Below are positions 1 through 37,342 of a stretch of DNA of 64,000 bases, in pieces (positions within the stretch are counted from its first letter, which is position 1; every line of letters begins with the position of its first letter). This DNA comes from Escherichia coli (GTDB taxonomy: Bacteria; Pseudomonadota; Gammaproteobacteria; Enterobacterales; Enterobacteriaceae): NCBI RefSeq assembly GCF_036507355.1, contig NZ_AP027877.1; one strand, 5' to 3'. Below the pieces are notes generated by a model. That model was not told where the DNA came from. It did no database searches and worked only from the letters and a program-made list of their open reading frames with translations. Made by a program: the position numbers and the translations under genes.

Positions 1-163
1 ACGCAGCAAGTTCCCAAAGGCTCCAGCGGAACGCCGATTGAATGGGCGATTGATGGCGAAACCACGTCGCTTCACTACCAGGCGAGTTATGTGGTCGTCA
101 ACACTCAGGCCACTGGTGGCACAGCGAATGCCCTTGTCAATTTTTCCATCACCTATGAGTAAG
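1..163 (+). CDS. 3' end of an upstream CDS (partial); C-terminus resembles a fimbrial subunit, possibly the lpf operon tail
   Basis: Open frame runs from the window edge to TAA at 161-163; C-terminal ...GGTANALVNFSITYE resembles a fimbrial beta-strand tail; lpf lies next to eptB in some E. coli (memory). Confidence 0.3.
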
Positions 164-416: not shown

Positions 417-2108
417 ATGAGATACATCAAATCGATTACACAGCAGAAGCTGAGCTTTTTGCTTGCAATCTATATTGGCCTTTTTATGAATGGCGCGGTT
501 TTTTACCGCCGCTTCGGCAGCTATGCGCACGATTTTACCGTCTGGAAAGGCATTTCTGCTGTTGTTGAACTGGCCGCCACCGTACTGGTAACCTTCTTTT
601 TACTACGTCTTCTTTCGCTGTTTGGCCGCCGCAGCTGGCGTATTCTGGCATCGCTGGTTGTGCTCTTTTCCGCAGGTGCCAGCTATTACATGACCTTCCT
701 TAATGTGGTCATTGGTTATGGCATCATCGCTTCCGTCATGACCACCGATATCGACCTGTCAAAAGAAGTTGTTGGTCTGAACTTTATTCTCTGGTTAATC
801 GCCGTTAGCGCATTGCCTCTTATCCTTATCTGGAATAACCGCTGTCGCTACACCTTGCTCCGACAACTGCGAACCCCAGGGCAGCGTATTCGCAGCCTGG
901 CGGTCGTCGTACTGGCGGGAATTATGGTTTGGGCACCGATTCGTTTGCTGGATATCCAGCAGAAGAAAGTGGAGAGGGCGACCGGCGTTGATTTGCCGAG
1001 TTATGGCGGTGTCGTAGCGAACTCTTATCTGCCATCAAACTGGCTTTCTGCGTTGGGGCTGTACGCCTGGGCGCGGGTCGATGAATCTTCCGATAATAAT
1101 TCATTGCTTAACCCGGCGAAGAAATTCACTTATCAGGCACCGCAAAATGTTAATGACACTTATGTCGTGTTTATCATCGGTGAAACCACGCGTTGGGACC
1201 ATATGGGCATTTTCGGCTATGAGCGTAATACCACGCCGAAGCTGGCCCAGGAGAAAAATCTGGCGGCGTTCCGTGGTTACTCCTGTGACACCGCAACCAA
1301 ACTCTCTCTGCGTTGCATGTTTGTACGTCAGGGGGGCGCGGAAGATAATCCGCAGCGCACATTAAAAGAACAGAACATTTTCGCGGTACTGAAGCAGTTA
1401 GGATTCAGTTCTGACCTCTACGCCATGCAGAGCGAAATGTGGTTCTACAGCAATACGATGGCGGATAATATTGCTTACCGTGAACAGATTGGTGCGGAGC
1501 CACGTAACCGTGGCAAGCCGGTAGATGATATGTTGCTGGTAGACGAAATGCAGCAATCGCTGGGGCGCAACCCGGATGGTAAGCATCTAATCATTCTGCA
1601 TACCAAAGGTTCGCACTTTAACTACACCCAGCGTTACCCGCGCAGCTTTGCGCAGTGGAAGCCGGAATGTATTGGTGTTGATAGCGGATGTACCAAAGCG
1701 CAGATGATCAACTCCTATGACAACTCGGTGACCTATGTGGATCACTTTATCTCCAGTGTGATTGATCAGGTTCGCGATAAGAAAGCGATTGTGTTCTACG
1801 CAGCTGACCACGGCGAGTCAATTAATGAACGCGAGCACCTGCACGGCACGCCGCGTGAACTGGCACCGCCGGAGCAGTTCCGCGTACCGATGATGGTCTG
1901 GATGTCAGATAAATATCTGGAAAATCCGGTCAATGCGCAGGCGTTTGCGCAGCTGAAAAAAGCAGCCGACATGAAAGTGCCACGCCGTCACGTAGAGCTG
2001 TACGACACCATCATGGGTTGTCTTGGCTATACTTCACCGGATGGTGGAATTAACGAAAACAACAACTGGTGTCACATCCCGCAGACAAAAGAGGCAGCGG
2101 CTAACTAA
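417..2108 (+). CDS. eptB: Kdo(2)-lipid A phosphoethanolamine transferase
   Basis: ORF 384..2108; N-terminus [16 protein letters not shown] from ATG at 417 gives 563 aa; sulfatase/PEtN-transferase family. Confidence 0.9.
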
Positions 2109-2454: not shown

Positions 2455-2974
2455 ACACCACACATTTCCCTGCCAAATTTGCGCCCCATATCTCACTATC
2501 CATTAACGGATTTGTGACAGAAACCATTGTCTTTTTTTATATTTGCTTAAATCTTTTTTTGCGTTACTTATGGCTGGCGCTGGCATTTTCCGCTGTGCGT
2601 TTTAGCGTTCATGGTATTAATCGCTCAGATATCCACCTTTTCCTCAGATTTTTTTCATTAAATGCATAAAACTTAATCACCAAATGTTGCTAAATATTAA
2701 GCTGATTGTTCTGGTCATGTTGGAGTAGCACAAATTTCTCTGCTGCAAATAGCTGTTTGAAGTTTTTTTAATCTTTGTTTGTGGATTCTCACCGTTGGTG
2801 TAAATCCCGGTTGGCTGTATTGACGTTTTCACATTCTGTTGACAGATTGTAGGTCACGAGGGGCATTTTATGGAGGATCCGCACTGTTACACTGATGTTA
2901 ATTAGTACGGCATCCCCACCTCATAACGTTGACCCGACCGGGCAAAAAACAAAAAAGGTCAGGCAGCGACAACC

Positions 2975-3015
2975 CACTGCAAAGGGTTAAAACAACAAAC
3001 ATCACAATTGGAGCA
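2975..3015 (+). promoter_or_regulatory. C/A-rich dppA leader, candidate GcvB sRNA target site, with ribosome-binding site
   Basis: AAAACAACAAACATCACAATTGGAGCAGAATA immediately upstream of dppA ATG; assignment is from knowledge of the dppA leader, not shown by sequence alone. Confidence 0.35.
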
Positions 3016-3020
3016 GAATA

Positions 3021-4628
3021 ATGCGTATTTCCTTGAAAAAGTCAGGGATGCTGAAGCTTGGTCTCAGCCTGGTGGCTATGACCGTCGCAGCAAGTGTTCA
3101 GGCTAAAACTCTGGTTTATTGCTCAGAAGGATCTCCGGAAGGGTTTAACCCGCAGCTGTTTACCTCCGGCACCACCTATGACGCCTCTTCCGTCCCGCTT
3201 TATAACCGTCTGGTTGAATTTAAAATCGGCACCACCGAAGTGATCCCGGGCCTCGCTGAAAAGTGGGAAGTCAGCGAAGACGGTAAAACCTATACCTTCC
3301 ATCTGCGTAAAGGTGTGAAGTGGCACGACAATAAAGAATTCAAACCGACGCGCGAAATGAACGCCGATGACGTGGTGTTCTCGTTTGATCGTCAGAAAAA
3401 CGCGCAAAACCCGTACCATAAAGTATCTGGCGGCAGCTACGAATACTTCGAAGGCATGGGCTTGCCAGAGCTGATCAGCGAAGTGAAAAAGGTGGACGAC
3501 AACACCGTTCAGTTTGTGCTGACTCGCCCGGAAGCGCCGTTCCTCGCTGACCTTGCAATGGACTTCGCCTCTATTCTGTCAAAAGAATATGCTGATGCGA
3601 TGATGAAAGCTGGTACACCGGAAAAACTGGACCTCAACCCAATCGGTACCGGTCCGTTCCAGTTACAGCAGTATCAAAAAGATTCCCGTATTCGCTACAA
3701 AGCGTTTGATGGCTACTGGGGCACCAAACCGCAGATCGATACGCTGGTCTTCTCTATTACCCCTGACGCTTCCGTGCGTTACGCTAAATTGCAGAAAAAT
3801 GAATGCCAGGTGATGCCGTACCCGAACCCGGCAGATATCGCTCGCATGAAGCAGGATAAATCCATCAATCTGATGGAAATGCCGGGGCTTAACGTCGGTT
3901 ATCTCTCGTATAACGTGCAGAAAAAACCACTCGATGACGTGAAAGTTCGCCAGGCTCTGACCTACGCGGTGAACAAAGATGCCATCATTAAAGCGGTTTA
4001 TCAGGGCGCGGGTGTATCAGCGAAAAACCTGATCCCGCCAACTATGTGGGGCTATAACGACGACGTTCAGGACTACACCTACGATCCTGAAAAAGCGAAA
4101 GCCTTGCTGAAAGAAGCGGGTCTGGAAAAAGGTTTCTCCATCGACCTGTGGGCGATGCCGGTACAACGTCCGTATAACCCGAACGCTCGCCGCATGGCGG
4201 AGATGATTCAGGCAGACTGGGCGAAAGTGGGCGTGCAGGCTAAAATCGTCACCTACGAATGGGGTGAGTACCTCAAGCGTGCGAAAGATGGCGAGCATCA
4301 GACGGTAATGATGGGCTGGACTGGCGATAACGGGGATCCGGATAACTTCTTCGCCACTCTGTTCAGCTGCGCCGCCTCTGAACAAGGCTCCAACTACTCA
4401 AAATGGTGCTACAAACCGTTTGAAGATCTGATTCAACCGGCGCGTGCTACCGACGACCATAACAAACGCGTTGAACTGTACAAGCAAGCGCAGGTGGTGA
4501 TGCACGATCAGGCTCCGGCACTGATCATCGCTCACTCCACCGTGTTTGAACCGGTACGCAAAGAAGTTAAAGGCTATGTGGTTGATCCATTAGGCAAACA
4601 TCACTTCGAAAACGTCTCTATCGAATAA
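3021..4628 (+). CDS. dppA: Dipeptide ABC transporter periplasmic binding protein
   Basis: 535 aa; signal peptide MRISLKKSGMLKLGLSLVAMTVAASVQA; family 5 substrate-binding protein. Confidence 0.95.
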   Translation: MRISLKKSGMLKLGLSLVAMTVAASVQAKTLVYCSEGSPEGFNPQLFTSGTTYDASSVPLYNRLVEFKIGTTEVIPGLAEKWEVSEDGKTYTFHLRKGVKWHDNKEFKPTREMNADDVVFSFDRQKNAQNPYHKVSGGSYEYFEGMGLPELISEVKKVDDNTVQFVLTRPEAPFLADLAMDFASILSKEYADAMMKAGTPEKLDLNPIGTGPFQLQQYQKDSRIRYKAFDGYWGTKPQIDTLVFSITPDASVRYAKLQKNECQVMPYPNPADIARMKQDKSINLMEMPGLNVGYLSYNVQKKPLDDVKVRQALTYAVNKDAIIKAVYQGAGVSAKNLIPPTMWGYNDDVQDYTYDPEKAKALLKEAGLEKGFSIDLWAMPVQRPYNPNARRMAEMIQADWAKVGVQAKIVTYEWGEYLKRAKDGEHQTVMMGWTGDNGDPDNFFATLFSCAASEQGSNYSKWCYKPFEDLIQPARATDDHNKRVELYKQAQVVMHDQAPALIIAHSTVFEPVRKEVKGYVVDPLGKHHFENVSIE

Positions 4629-28807: not shown

Positions 28808-30233
28808 TAATGCCGATCAGTTAAGGATCAGTTGACCGATCCAGTGGCTGTGTAAGAATCCGGAAACGCTCACTCGTTTCCGGATTTTTTTATGCACATT
28901 GGACAGGCTCTTGATCTGGTATCCCGTTACGATTCTCTGCGTAACCCACTGACTTCTCTGGGGGATTACCTCGACCCCGAACTCATCTCTCGTTGCCTTG
29001 CCGAATCAGGTACTGTAACGCTACGCAAGCGCCGTCTTCCCCTCGAAATGATGGTCTGGTGTATTGTTGGCATGGCGCTTGAGCGTAAAGAACCTCTTCA
29101 CCAGATTGTGAATCGCCTGGACATCATGCTGCCGGGCAATCGCCCCTTCGTTGCCCCCAGTGCTGTTATTCAGGCCCGCCAGCGCCTGGGAAGTGAGGCT
29201 GTCCGCCGCGTGTTCACGAAAACAGCGCAGCTCTGGCATAACGCCACGCCGCATCCGCACTGGTGCGGCCTGACCCTGCTGGCCATCGATGGTGTGTTCT
29301 GGCGCACACCGGATACACCAGAGAACGATGCAGCCTTCCCTCGCCAGACACATGCCGGGACCCCGGCGCTCTACCCGCAGGTCAAAATGGTCTGCCAGAT
29401 GGAACTGACCAGCCATCTGCTGACGGCTGCAGCCTTCGGCACGATGAAGAACAGCGAAAATGAGCTTGCTGAGCAACTTATAGAACAAACCGGCGATAAC
29501 ACTCTGACGTTAATGGATAAAGGTTATTACTCACTGGGATTGTTAAATGCCTGGAGCCTGGCGGGAGAACACCGCCACTGGATGATCCCTCTCAGAAAGG
29601 GAGCGCAATATGAAGAGATCAGAAAACTGGGTAAAGGCGATCATCTGGTGAAGCTGAAAACCAGCCCGCAGGCACGAAAAAAGTGGCCGGGACTGGGAAA
29701 TGAGGTGACAGCCCGCCTGCTGACCGTGACGCGCAAAGGAAAAGTCTGCCATCTGCTGACGTCGATGACGGACGCCATGCGCTTCCCCGGAGGAGAAATG
29801 GCGGATCTGTACAGTCATCGCTGGGAAATCGAACTGGGATACAGGGAGATAAAACAGACGATGCAACTGAGCAGGCTGACGCTGAGAAGTAAAAAGCCTG
29901 AGCTTGTGGAGCAAGAGCTGTGGGGTGTCTTACTGGCTTATAATCTGGTGAGATATCAGATGATTAAAATGGCGGAACATCTGAAAGGTTACTGGCCAAA
30001 TCAACTGAGCTTCTCAGAATCATGCGGAATGGTGATGAGAATGCTGATGATATTGCAGGGCGCTTCACCGGGACGTATACCGGAGCTGATGCGCGATCTT
30101 GCAAGTATGGGACAACTTGTGAAATTACCGACAAGAAGGGAAAGGGCCTTCCCGAGAGTGGTAAAGGAGAGGCCCTGGAAATACCCCACAGCCCCGAAAA
30201 AGAGCCAGTCAGTTGCTTAACTGACTGGCATTA
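28808..30233 (+). mobile_element. IS4 insertion sequence (1426 bp)
   Basis: Terminal inverted repeats TAATGCCGATCAGTTAAG (left) and TAATGCCAGTCAGTTAAG (right, reverse complement); exact length 1426 bp; single 442-aa transposase; 12-bp direct duplication. Confidence 0.92.
28892..30220 (+). CDS. insG: IS4 transposase
   Basis: 442 aa, [26 protein letters not shown]...; DDE transposase of the IS4 family. Confidence 0.92.
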
Positions 30234-33954: not shown

Positions 33955-35355
33955 ATGGACCAGAAGCTGTTAACGGATTTCCGCTCAGAACTACTCGATT
34001 CACGTTTTGGCGCAAAGGCCATTTCTACTATCGCGGAGTCAAAACGATTTCCGCTGCACGAAATGCGCGATGATGTCGCATTCCAGATTATCAATGATGA
34101 ATTATATCTTGATGGCAACGCTCGTCAGAACCTGGCCACTTTCTGCCAGACCTGGGACGACGAAAACGTCCATAAATTGATGGATTTGTCGATCAATAAA
34201 AACTGGATCGACAAAGAAGAATATCCGCAATCCGCAGCCATCGACCTGCGTTGCGTAAACATGGTTGCCGATCTGTGGCATGCGCCTGCGCCGAAAAATG
34301 GTCAGGCCGTTGGCACCAACACCATTGGTTCTTCCGAGGCTTGTATGCTTGGCGGGATGGCGATGAAATGGCGTTGGCGCAAGCGTATGGAAGCTGCAGG
34401 CAAACCAACGGATAAACCAAACCTGGTGTGCGGTCCGGTACAAATCTGCTGGCATAAATTCGCCCGCTACTGGGATGTGGAGCTGCGTGAGATCCCTATG
34501 CGCCCCGGTCAGTTGTTTATGGACCCGAAACGCATGATTGAAGCCTGCGACGAAAACACCATCGGCGTGGTGCCGACTTTCGGCGTGACCTACACCGGTA
34601 ACTATGAGTTCCCGCAACCGCTGCACGATGCGCTGGATAAATTCCAGGCCGACACCGGTATCGACATCGACATGCACATCGACGCCGCCAGCGGTGGCTT
34701 CCTGGCACCGTTCGTCGCCCCGGATATCGTCTGGGACTTCCGCCTGCCGCGTGTGAAATCGATCAGTGCTTCAGGCCATAAATTCGGTCTGGCTCCGCTG
34801 GGCTGCGGCTGGGTTATCTGGCGTGATGAAGAAGCGCTGCCGCAGGAACTGGTGTTCAACGTTGACTACCTGGGGGGGCAGATTGGTACTTTCGCCATCA
34901 ACTTCTCCCGCCCGGCAGGTCAGGTGATTGCACAGTACTATGAATTCTTGCGCCTTGGTCGTGAAGGCTATACCAAAGTACAGAATGCTTCCTACCAGGT
35001 CGCTGCCTATCTGGCGGATGAAATCGCCAAACTGGGGCCGTATGAGTTCATCTGTACGGGTCGCCCGGACGAAGGCATCCCGGCGGTTTGCTTCAAACTG
35101 AAAGATGGTGAAGATCCGGGATACACCCTGTACGACCTCTCTGAACGTCTGCGTCTGCGCGGCTGGCAGGTTCCGGCCTTCACTCTCGGCGGTGAAGCCA
35201 CCGACATCGTGGTGATGCGCATTATGTGTCGTCGCGGCTTCGAAATGGACTTTGCTGAACTGTTGCTGGAAGACTACAAAGCCTCCCTGAAATATCTCAG
35301 CGATCACCCGAAACTGCAGGGTATTGCCCAGCAGAACAGCTTTAAACACACCTGA
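33955..35355 (+). CDS. gadA: Glutamate decarboxylase alpha
   Basis: Track ORF 33892..35355 trimmed to [19 protein letters not shown] (466 aa); PLP-dependent; assigned gadA rather than gadB by its position next to gadX. Confidence 0.9.
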
Positions 35356-35370
35356 TAACATAACGTTGTA

Positions 35371-35420
35371 AAAACCGAATGCCCAGCCTTTAAAAAAACA
35401 GCTGGGCATTCGGTTGCTTA
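35371..35420 (+). terminator. Rho-independent terminator after gadA
   Basis: Stem CCGAATGCCCAGC...GCTGGGCATTCGG with flanking A/T runs. Confidence 0.75.
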
Positions 35421-35759
35421 TTAATCGCAATAATATATTGGCTGTCTATTCATCGTGTTGATAAGATATATGTTATATGAATGTTTATTAAATGTAGCGA
35501 TTACCTTTAATGTCACGAAAGGGGATTATTTGCTTACTATTAATTTCCCTGCGTTCTTAAACACGTATTTGTATTATAAATCCAGTCATCCTGCCCGTAG
35601 AACATCACACATTATCATCCTGTTCTCCCGCTTCGTTTAAATTTATTTATCAATCAATTTGACTTAAGAGGGCGGCGTGCTACATTAATAAACAGTAATA
35701 TGTTTATGTAATATTAAGTCAACTATGCAATCACTACATGGGAAGGTAATGACTCCAAC

Positions 35760-36263
35760 TTATTGATAGTGTTTTATGTTCAGATAATGCCCGATGACTT
35801 TGTCATGCAGCTCCACCGATTTTGAGAACGACAGCGACTTCCGTCCCAGCCGTGCCAGGTGCTGCCTCAGATTCAGGTTATGCCGCTCAATTCGCTGCGT
35901 ATATCGCTTGCTGATTACGTGCAGCTTTCCCTTCAGGCGGGATTCATACAGCGGCCAGCCATCCGTCATCCATATCACCACGTCAAAGGGTGACAGCAGG
36001 CTCATAAGACGCCCCAGCGTCGCCATCGTGCGTTCACCGAATACGTGCGCAACAACCGTCTTCCGGAGCCTGTCATACGCGTAAAACAGCCAGCGCTGGC
36101 GCGATTTAGCCCCGACATAGCCCCACTGTTCGTCCATTTCCGCGCAGACGATGACGTCACTGCCCGGCTGTATGCGCGAGGTTACCGACTGCGGCCTGAG
36201 TTTTTTAAGTGACGTAAAATCGTGTTGAGGCCAATGCCCATAATGCGGGCTGTTGCCCGGCAT
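35760..36263 (-). CDS. insB: IS1 transposase InsB frame (made as InsAB' by -1 frameshift)
   Basis: 167 aa [36 protein letters not shown]...; A6C slippery motif upstream. Confidence 0.9.
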
Positions 36264-36457
36264 CCAACGCCATTCATGGCCATATCAATGATTTTCTGGT
36301 GCGTACCGGGTTGAGAAGCGGTGTAAGTGAACTGCAGTTGCCATGTTTTACGGCAGTGAGAGCAGAGATAGCGCTGATGTCCGGCGGTGCTTTTGCCGTT
36401 ACGCACCACCCCGTCAGTAGCTGAACAGGAGGGACAGCTGATAGAAACAGAAGCCAC
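36182..36457 (-). CDS. insA: IS1 InsA
   Basis: 91 aa [40 protein letters not shown]... Confidence 0.9.
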
Positions 36458-37342
36458 TGGAGCACCTCAAAAACACCATCATACACTAAATCAGTAAGTT
36501 GGCAGCATCACCACATGGGAATTGTCTAATTGCGTATGCAAGACATAAATATATTCTCACCATGGTTAATGGTGAATATCGCTATTTTAATGGCGGTGAC
36601 CTGGTTTTTGCGGATGCAAGCCAAATTCGAGTAGATAAGTGTGTTGAAAATTTTGTATTCGTGTCAAGGGACACGCTTTCATTATTTCTCCCGATGCTCA
36701 AGGAGGAGGCATTAAATCTTCATGCACATAAAAAAGTTTCTTCATTACTCGTTCATCACTGTAGCAGAGATATTCCTGTTTTTCAGGAAGTTGCGCAACT
36801 ATCGCAGAATAAGAATCTTCGCTATGCAGAAATGCTACGTAAAAGAGCATTAATCTTTGCGTTGTTATCTGTTTTTCTTGAGGATGAGCACTTTATACCG
36901 CTGCTTCTGAACGTTTTACAACCGAACATGCGAACACGAGTTTGTACGGTTATCAATAATAATATCGCCCATGAGTGGACACTAGCCCGAATCGCCAGCG
37001 AGCTGTTGATGAGTCCAAGTCTGTTAAAGAAAAAATTGCGCGAAGAAGAGACATCATATTCACAGTTGCTTACTGAGTGTAGAATGCAACGTGCTTTGCA
37101 ACTTATTGTTATACATGGTTTTTCAATTAAGCGAGTTGCAGTATCCTGTGGATATCACAGCGTGTCGTATTTCATTTACGTCTTTCGAAATTATTATGGG
37201 ATGACGCCCACAGAGTATCAGGAGCGATCGGCGCAGAGATTGTCGAACCGTGACTCGGCGGCAAGTATTGTTGCGCAAGGGAATTTTTACGGCACTGACT
37301 GTTCTGCGGAAGGAATAAGATTATAGAATTTTACTCAGACAT

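Follow-up and report, generated by a model that had tools for sequence, protein, structure and literature searches.

A recent IS1 insertion in the 5′ end of gadX in one strain of Escherichia coli and its predicted effect on acid resistance

We analyzed a stretch of 64,000 nucleotides from Escherichia coli (assembly GCF_036507355.1, contig NZ_AP027877.1), referred to here as the window, in which gadX, the gene of the acid-resistance activator GadX, is interrupted by a copy of the insertion sequence (IS) IS1. Our conclusion, in which we have considerable confidence, is that a canonical IS1 recently entered gadX at its 5′ end in this one strain, that GadX is probably absent or strongly reduced, and that a partial phenotype is to be expected. 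Judged by its sequence, this insertion mutation is a textbook case for IS1. Laboratory evolution and clinical isolates have already provided examples of gadX being disrupted by IS elements and of IS1 moving next to gadX (10.1101/063271, PMC13162491, PMC2947995). The novelty lies only in the particular allele, its recent origin, and the fact that annotation pipelines call the disrupted gadX intact.

Reading of the window sequence places a complete IS1, exactly 768 bp long, at positions 35745-36512 on the minus strand. The gadX start codon, an ATG, is at 35725, and the 20 nt of the open reading frame (ORF) upstream of IS1 read ATGCAATCACTACATGGGAA; the insertion point is therefore within codon 7, between nt 20 and nt 21 of the ORF. 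The first bases of IS1, at 35745, are GGTAATGACTCCAAC, and the last, up to 36512, are GTTGGCAGCATCACC. A repeat finder identifies the terminal inverted repeats (35745-35767 and 36490-36512, 23 nt each, 78% complementary) as well as a direct repeat around the element (35730-35744 and 36507-36521). The exact 9-bp core of the latter, ACATGGGAA, is the target-site duplication, with its left copy at 35736-35744 and its right copy at 36513-36521. A preliminary description of this stretch had proposed an IS1 in codon 7 of gadX with a 9-bp duplication, and that proposal is borne out to the base. It had also proposed that the frame is restored if IS1 and one repeat are removed; in-silico excision indeed yields an uninterrupted 274-aa GadX. 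Three features go beyond that description, namely that IS1 is antisense to gadX, that a TTG-started hybrid ORF of 275 aa spans the junction, and that the closest relatives have an empty site.

The transposase genes of IS1 lie on the minus strand, i.e., antisense to gadX, such that the right inverted repeat (IRR, 35745-35767) adjoins the gadX 5′ stub and the left inverted repeat (IRL, 36490-36512) adjoins the gadX remainder. The canonical IRL 23-mer, GGTGATGCTGCCAACTTACTGAT, has one match in the window, with 0 mismatches, against 0.00 expected in shuffled sequence. Both insA (91 aa, 36182-36457, minus strand) and the insB′ frame (167 aa, 35760-36263, minus strand) are open, and they overlap at the A6C run TTAAAAAAC (36208-36200, minus strand), the site of the −1 frameshift. 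InsB scores 145.6 bits against NF033558, the NCBIfam profile of the IS1 family transposase (cutoff 100), and InsA 91.1 bits against the N-terminal part of the same profile (positions 1-81). A consensus promoter scan also recovers the promoter-like site pIRL of IS1, at 36505-36478 on the minus strand. Thus, the length, the inverted repeats, the insA/insB′ arrangement with its A6C run and the 8-9-bp duplication are all those of the IS1 family. Because its ends, frames, frameshift site and profile matches are intact, we regard the element as a canonical, complete and apparently transposition-competent copy. It is 99.5-99.9% identical to copies labelled ‘IS1-like element IS1A family’ in RefSeq. 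IS1 prefers AT-rich targets, a preference that the AT-richness of gadX and of the region upstream suits: the GC fraction is 0.37 around the insertion site, 0.41 in gadX and 0.33 upstream of gadX, versus 0.50 for the window.

The insertion leaves gadX in two parts. On the 5′ side, IS1 follows directly upon codons 1-6 and two bases of codon 7 (35725-35744), and the native frame ends at a TGA (35764-35766) after 13 codons; this truncated frame, encoding a 13-aa peptide, occupies 35725-35766 on the plus strand. On the 3′ side, the remainder begins at the third base of codon 7 and ends with the stop codon (36522-37326, plus strand, 805 nt); it scores 593.7 bits against the GadX equivalog profile NF007432 (cutoff 500), covering profile positions 3-274. 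In a consensus scan of 35350-37700, the only promoter-like site on the plus strand is that at 35659-35686, upstream of the native ATG (TTGACT, a 16-nt spacer, TACATT, and a TG just upstream of the −10 box). From its position, we take this site to be the published RpoS-dependent gadX promoter. The same scan shows no plus-strand promoter-like site within IS1 or at the IRL/gadX junction, and pIRL is directed away from the gadX remainder, which lacks a promoter of its own and is now 768 bp farther from the native one. All three plus-strand frames through IS1 contain 9-13 stop codons, and C-rich, G-poor windows are found within the element at 35910-36143. The gene is thus GadX by sequence and by synteny, the context gadA-gadX-GadY-gadW-mdtFE-gadE being conserved, and it is not an intact gene, as its ORF is interrupted and severed from its own promoter and start codon. 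The preliminary description had further held that the promoter, the ribosome-binding site and the first 20 nt are cut off from gadX. The separation is confirmed; for the ribosome-binding site, this holds only as regards position, since no recognizable Shine-Dalgarno pairing is found at the native gadX start (35705-35724), where the duplex free energy is −0.9 kcal/mol. The corresponding values for gadW and gadA are −5.3 and −8.7 kcal/mol, and random positions average −2.2 kcal/mol.

The age of the allele is indicated by its nearest relatives, which were chosen as genomes carrying exactly the MdtF of the window and then compared with the window. In GCA_905398585.1, which differs by 4 mismatches in ~21 kb, gadX is intact (825 bp, 274 aa) and the insertion site is empty, with a single ACATGGGAA. 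Three further genomes with 4-5 mismatches, GCA_016660925.1, ERR3330519 and GCA_044688185.1, likewise have an intact gadX and the same empty site. Alignment with these intact loci confirms the IS1 ends and the 9-bp duplication as they had been described. The contig of GCA_905398585.1 ends 76 bp inside the IS4 of the window and 75 bp inside its IS600, so the IS4 insertion is common to both strains, and so is the break made by IS600 in chuA, which is therefore older than the insertion in gadX. Since this relative shares IS4 and IS600 and yet has an empty gadX site, the IS1 in gadX would be the youngest of the three. Neither gadX/IS1 junction was found as one continuous match among 5,426 complete RefSeq E. 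coli genomes, and the left-junction 28-mer is absent from JGI metagenome contigs and GTDB species representatives. A survey of related genomes thus does not return the identical junction, and it does return other IS1 sites in the gadX area, which recur (see below). Our reading of these comparisons is that the insertion is recent, younger than IS4 and IS600, and specific to this strain or clone.

A recent insertion confined to one genome may also have arisen while the sequenced clone was stored or cultured in the laboratory, and not in a natural population. This alternative, which concerns only the origin of the allele, seems to us rather unlikely, although nothing contradicts it directly. The single occurrence and the empty site in relatives at 4 mismatches in ~21 kb are what it would predict. 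In addition, among the IS elements that caused mutations in aged laboratory colonies, IS1 was the most frequent (PMC13162491), and culture readily selects IS-mediated mutations of the gad locus (10.1101/063271). However, natural isolates also commonly carry IS1 insertions in gadX or near it, among them a large clone that contains sequence type (ST) 457, and therefore a natural origin is equally plausible.

As no new promoter is in place for the gadX remainder, GadX is predicted to be absent or strongly reduced, and its loss or severe reduction is the most likely effect of the insertion. IS1 is classically polar in both orientations. Transcripts initiated at the gadX promoter, or reading through from gadA, would enter ~750 nt of untranslated IS1 RNA. 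Such RNA would be prone to Rho-dependent termination, and the transcripts would largely be ended before the gadX remainder. The expected result is a fall in the RpoS- and GadX-dependent activation of gadA/gadBC, gadE, GadY and other targets of GadX. GadE, GadW and other inputs would maintain much of the acid resistance that depends on glutamate. As for gadW, which has its own promoter, the share normally transcribed from the gadX promoter may drop through IS1 polarity.

The published circuitry is informative in this regard. GadX activates gadE and gadA/BC downstream of RpoS, and RpoS-dependent routes that are independent of GadX exist (PMC3937726). GadE remains active in gadX or gadW deletions, and GadX represses gadW (PMC4918353). 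GadY acts on gadXW transcripts, and gadXW cotranscripts are cited in the same work (PMC3937726). In K-12, a gadX::IS5 allele, a 78-bp deletion in gadX and a missense allele each gave γ-aminobutyric acid (GABA) levels that were significantly below those of the ancestor, though not zero (10.1101/063271). The earlier statement that GadX is a central activator is too strong, as it is GadE that is so described and GadX-independent routes exist (PMC4918353, PMC3937726). Altered gad regulation is a reasonable expectation for this strain, if somewhat overstated in the preliminary description. We expect the gad regulon to be weakened partially and depending on conditions, and acid resistance not to be lost. 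Gene knock-outs of this kind are ordinary and well understood, and this one most likely does no more than weaken an acid-resistance circuit that is already redundant. For the strain, the prediction is a weaker or re-balanced glutamate-dependent acid resistance, with altered expression of mdtEF and GadY. Together with its empty-site relatives, the strain provides a clean natural pair for studying GadX function outside K-12.

Several observations weigh against a complete loss of GadX, a null status that we infer from the structure of the locus. An in-frame TTG in the end of IS1 opens an ORF of 275 aa (36499-37326, plus strand) whose start lies inside IRL, in frame with the gadX remainder. Its product would begin MAASPHGNC, compared with MQSLHGNC in the native protein, and differs from GadX in the first five residues only. 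No Shine-Dalgarno sequence is found before this TTG or before Met21 (+0.7 kcal/mol each). We considered this deficiency as an argument against translation of the hybrid and dropped it, because the native start has no such sequence either; its lack before the TTG thus leaves translation possible. Furthermore, an outward −35 box is present in the ends of IS1 and is able to form hybrid promoters (PMC8764528), and some transcriptional read-through of IS1 is possible.

Taken together, these points could be read as a rewiring of gadX, in which a near-full-length GadX, beginning MAASPHGNC or at Met21, is still made but is uncoupled from the RpoS-dependent promoter. The TTG in the IS1 end would supply the start codon, and the outward −35 box or read-through transcription would possibly supply the message. 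We consider this improbable. It is true that the hybrid ORF exists, carries the name GadX in RefSeq and reaches the score of a GadX equivalog; that the native start is no better endowed with a Shine-Dalgarno sequence; and that the annotation of strain DFK.1 has a comparable hybrid start. It is also true that an outward-facing TTGGCA, with 5/6 matches to TTGACA, is found in IRL at 36499-36504, where it starts with the TTG of the hybrid itself, and that IS1 forms hybrid promoters from such a −35 box (PMC8764528, citing Prentki 1986). However, the hexamers at a spacing of 16-18 nt from TTGGCA are only ATTGTC, TTGTCT and TGTCTA, none of which is TATAAT-like by eye or in the consensus scan, and that scan reports no plus-strand promoter at the junction. 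The −35-like component of an IS1 hybrid promoter is thus present, and no acceptable −10 box was found. Moreover, with that −35 box in use, transcription would begin downstream of the TTG, and the resulting RNA could not be translated into the 275-aa product. TTG is in any case a weak start codon, the promoter pIRL of IS1 faces the other way, and the polarity of IS1 in both orientations also speaks against rewiring. Loss or severe reduction of GadX thus remains the effect that we favor.

That the assembler misplaced an IS1 copy in gadX is hardly credible, even though IS1 is multicopy in E. coli (a median of ~10 places per genome) and repeats are a classic source of misassembly, since a misplaced repeat would not yield a precise 9-bp duplication flanking complete inverted repeats, the empty site of the relatives is exactly the single-copy ACATGGGAA, and the source contig is a 4.64-Mb chromosome-scale assembly; the duplication and the exact empty site are strong arguments on this point.

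The hybrid ORF has consequences for annotation. In RefSeq it is WP_338388000.1, ‘acid resistance transcriptional activator GadX’, a protein known from a single contig; the name implies that the annotation pipeline treated the disrupted gene as intact. In strain DFK.1, a TTG start likewise comes from an IS1, in the other orientation and 3 bp away, and the annotation shows gadX as a normal gene of 825 bp; the hybrid GadX of that strain is WP_260654494.1 (locus positions 2708-3532). A TTG start codon is thus available inside the IS1 inverted repeat in both orientations. Homology-guided choice of start codons then becomes an annotation trap, yielding an ‘intact GadX’ in the window and in DFK.1, and gene-presence screens that list gadX would score such strains as wild type and miss the disruption. 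We also used the 254-aa GadX that starts at Met21 as a probe for other 5′-disrupted alleles, and rejected it because it returned mostly intact loci for which gene callers had chosen Met21. Many intact public gadX loci are in fact called from Met21 (254 aa) and not from the 274-aa start, and a 254-aa ‘GadX’ entry is therefore no evidence for a 5′ disruption.

Compared with known cases of insertional inactivation by IS1A-type copies in E. coli, the length, the repeats, the insA/insB′ arrangement with A6C, the 9-bp duplication and the AT-rich target are all the same; the mechanism is identical and only the site is new. The nearest counterpart is the gadX::IS1 allele of the 2016C-3878 type. Both alleles disrupt gadX near its 5′ end and both keep the two gadX fragments, but they differ in site, in orientation (opposite) and in IS1 variant (98.6% identical). 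The 2016C-3878-type allele is carried throughout a widespread clone, whereas that in the window is confined to one genome. The laboratory-evolved K-12 lines with gadX::IS5, gadX deletions or IS5-mediated loss of the gad island are also instances of IS-mediated GadX loss, with a drop in GABA that was measured (10.1101/063271); they differ in the element, IS5, in its 4-bp duplication and in having arisen under laboratory selection. Deletion of the whole gad island is known from aged colonies (PMC13162491). In extraintestinal E. coli, an IS1 between gadX and gadW that appeared within a patient affected the same neighbourhood in a natural infection, with a measurable effect on GadA (PMC2947995). 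That IS1 is intergenic and was associated with a rise in GadA, whereas the IS1 in the window is intragenic and lower GadX-dependent expression is expected. Lastly, in the hybrid promoters formed by IS1 (Prentki et al. 1986; afaA in ST131), an outward −35-like hexamer adjoins the target gene, as it does here (PMC8764528, PMC9330008). Unlike in those cases, there is no suitable −10 box at the right spacing in the gadX flank, and activation is not predicted.

Insertions of IS1 around gadX were surveyed in the complete genomes. A full query with IS1 in the orientation of the window retrieved 27 genomes at ≥80% coverage, and one with IS1 reversed retrieved 49 further genomes. Mapping at base level resolved 29 insertions in 28 genomes, plus two genomes with an IS1 remnant only (at about −470 and −487 relative to gadX). 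At least 24 distinct IS1 sites are found in the gadA-gadX interval, from −1724, inside gadA, to +663, and every insertion that keeps both gadX-region flanks has an 8- or 9-bp duplication. Three sites fall within 8 bp at the gadX 5′ end, namely that of the window (+12..20), that of DFK.1 (+15..23) and that of CX21 (+17); in CX21, the IS1 is accompanied by a deletion to ccp. At gadX +655..663, ECKH-100 and EF7-18-51 share an identical site with the same duplication, CACAGCGTG, and their IS1 variants are 93.1% and 98.4% identical, respectively, to the window copy. The same site with different variants implies independent hits on one 9-bp target. EF7-18-51 has a second IS1 at −312. A boundary at gadX +494/495 is found in three genomes. 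In E. coli O104:H4 FDAARGOS_772, and also in RM8376, the IS1 at gadX +494 is joined directly to a truncated hdeB; this IS1-mediated deletion removes the gadX 3′ end, gadW, mdtFE, gadE, hdeD and hdeA from reference stocks of an outbreak serotype.

The largest group consists of ~33 complete genomes that carry gadX::IS1 with identical match geometry. One of these, 2016C-3878, was mapped base by base, and has IS1 at gadX +95..+102 with the 8-bp duplication GTGATCTG. MRY15-117, MRY15-131 and CREC-544, which belong to this set, are documented as ST457 (PMC5430464, PMC9860340). In this widespread, multidrug-resistant, ST457-containing lineage, gadX seems to be fixed as a pseudogene.

A compact query sensitive to either orientation of IS1 was applied to gadX, treF, gadE and gadW. 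IS1-bearing genomes number 63 for gadX, 18 for treF and 15 for gadE; that is, the gadX area has ~4 times as many as either of two nearby control loci, with about half of them coming from one clone. As a matched control, gadW (79 genomes) proved uninformative, because the range over which its insertions are detected overlaps with that of the gadX insertions; treF and gadE took its place. Two further impressions were discarded. An orientation bias, with only DFK.1 opposite among the first 24 mapped genomes (25 insertions), was an artefact of same-strand joining, the reversed query having given the 49 additional genomes. A hot spot judged by uniform expectation was likewise not sustained: with ~12.8 chromosomal IS1 places per genome and a span of ~3.5 kb, ~49 genomes would be expected, and the 63-76 observed are not clearly above this number. 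The enrichment at gadX is thus seen only by comparison with local control loci. For a true IS1 hot spot at gadX, or for selection, the evidence is modest and suggestive only; the survey gives a hint that IS1 targets gadX repeatedly in E. coli. That the allele in the window is one outcome of selection acting convergently to attenuate GadX in natural E. coli is a tentative proposal, and one that we would not favor at present. If selection were responsible, and not AT-rich targets combined with clonal sampling, certain niches would repeatedly favor loss of GadX as an adaptive step, as happens in laboratory evolution.

The surroundings of gadX are otherwise well preserved. Relative to an intact reference locus, the window has three insertions only: IS4, the IS1 in gadX, and IS600 inside chuA. 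From treF to chuT, all genes other than gadX are open, including yhiD, with 0-5 aa differences from the reference. gadA, gadW, gadE, gadY and hdeABD had been described as intact, and this is correct: gadA (33955-35355, plus strand, upstream of the disrupted gadX), gadW (37694-38422, plus strand), mdtF, mdtE, gadE, hdeD, hdeA and hdeB have no internal stop codons and 0-2 aa differences. The small RNA (sRNA) GadY, antisense to the gadX 3′ untranslated region, is intact at 37338-37451 on the minus strand (RF00122, 150 bits, gathering threshold 45, model positions 1-114).

Three different IS elements within 64 kb suggest a lineage in which such elements are active. IS4 (~28808-30233) encodes a 442-aa transposase (28892-30220) and has entered yhjB at its stop codon, duplicating 12 bp, CTCCTCCTGAAG. 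IS600 (~54123-55386; OrfA 54187-54489, OrfB 54525-55343) interrupts the haem receptor gene chuA/shuA, leaving an N-terminal fragment of 375 aa (53003-54130) that is annotated in GenBank as the hypothetical protein BED20442.1. Between mdtE and gadE, a match to the sRNA ES205 (RF02754, 105 bits, gathering threshold 86) is found at 43230-43301 on the minus strand, inside an annotated hypothetical ORF of 92 aa on the opposite strand (43140-43418).

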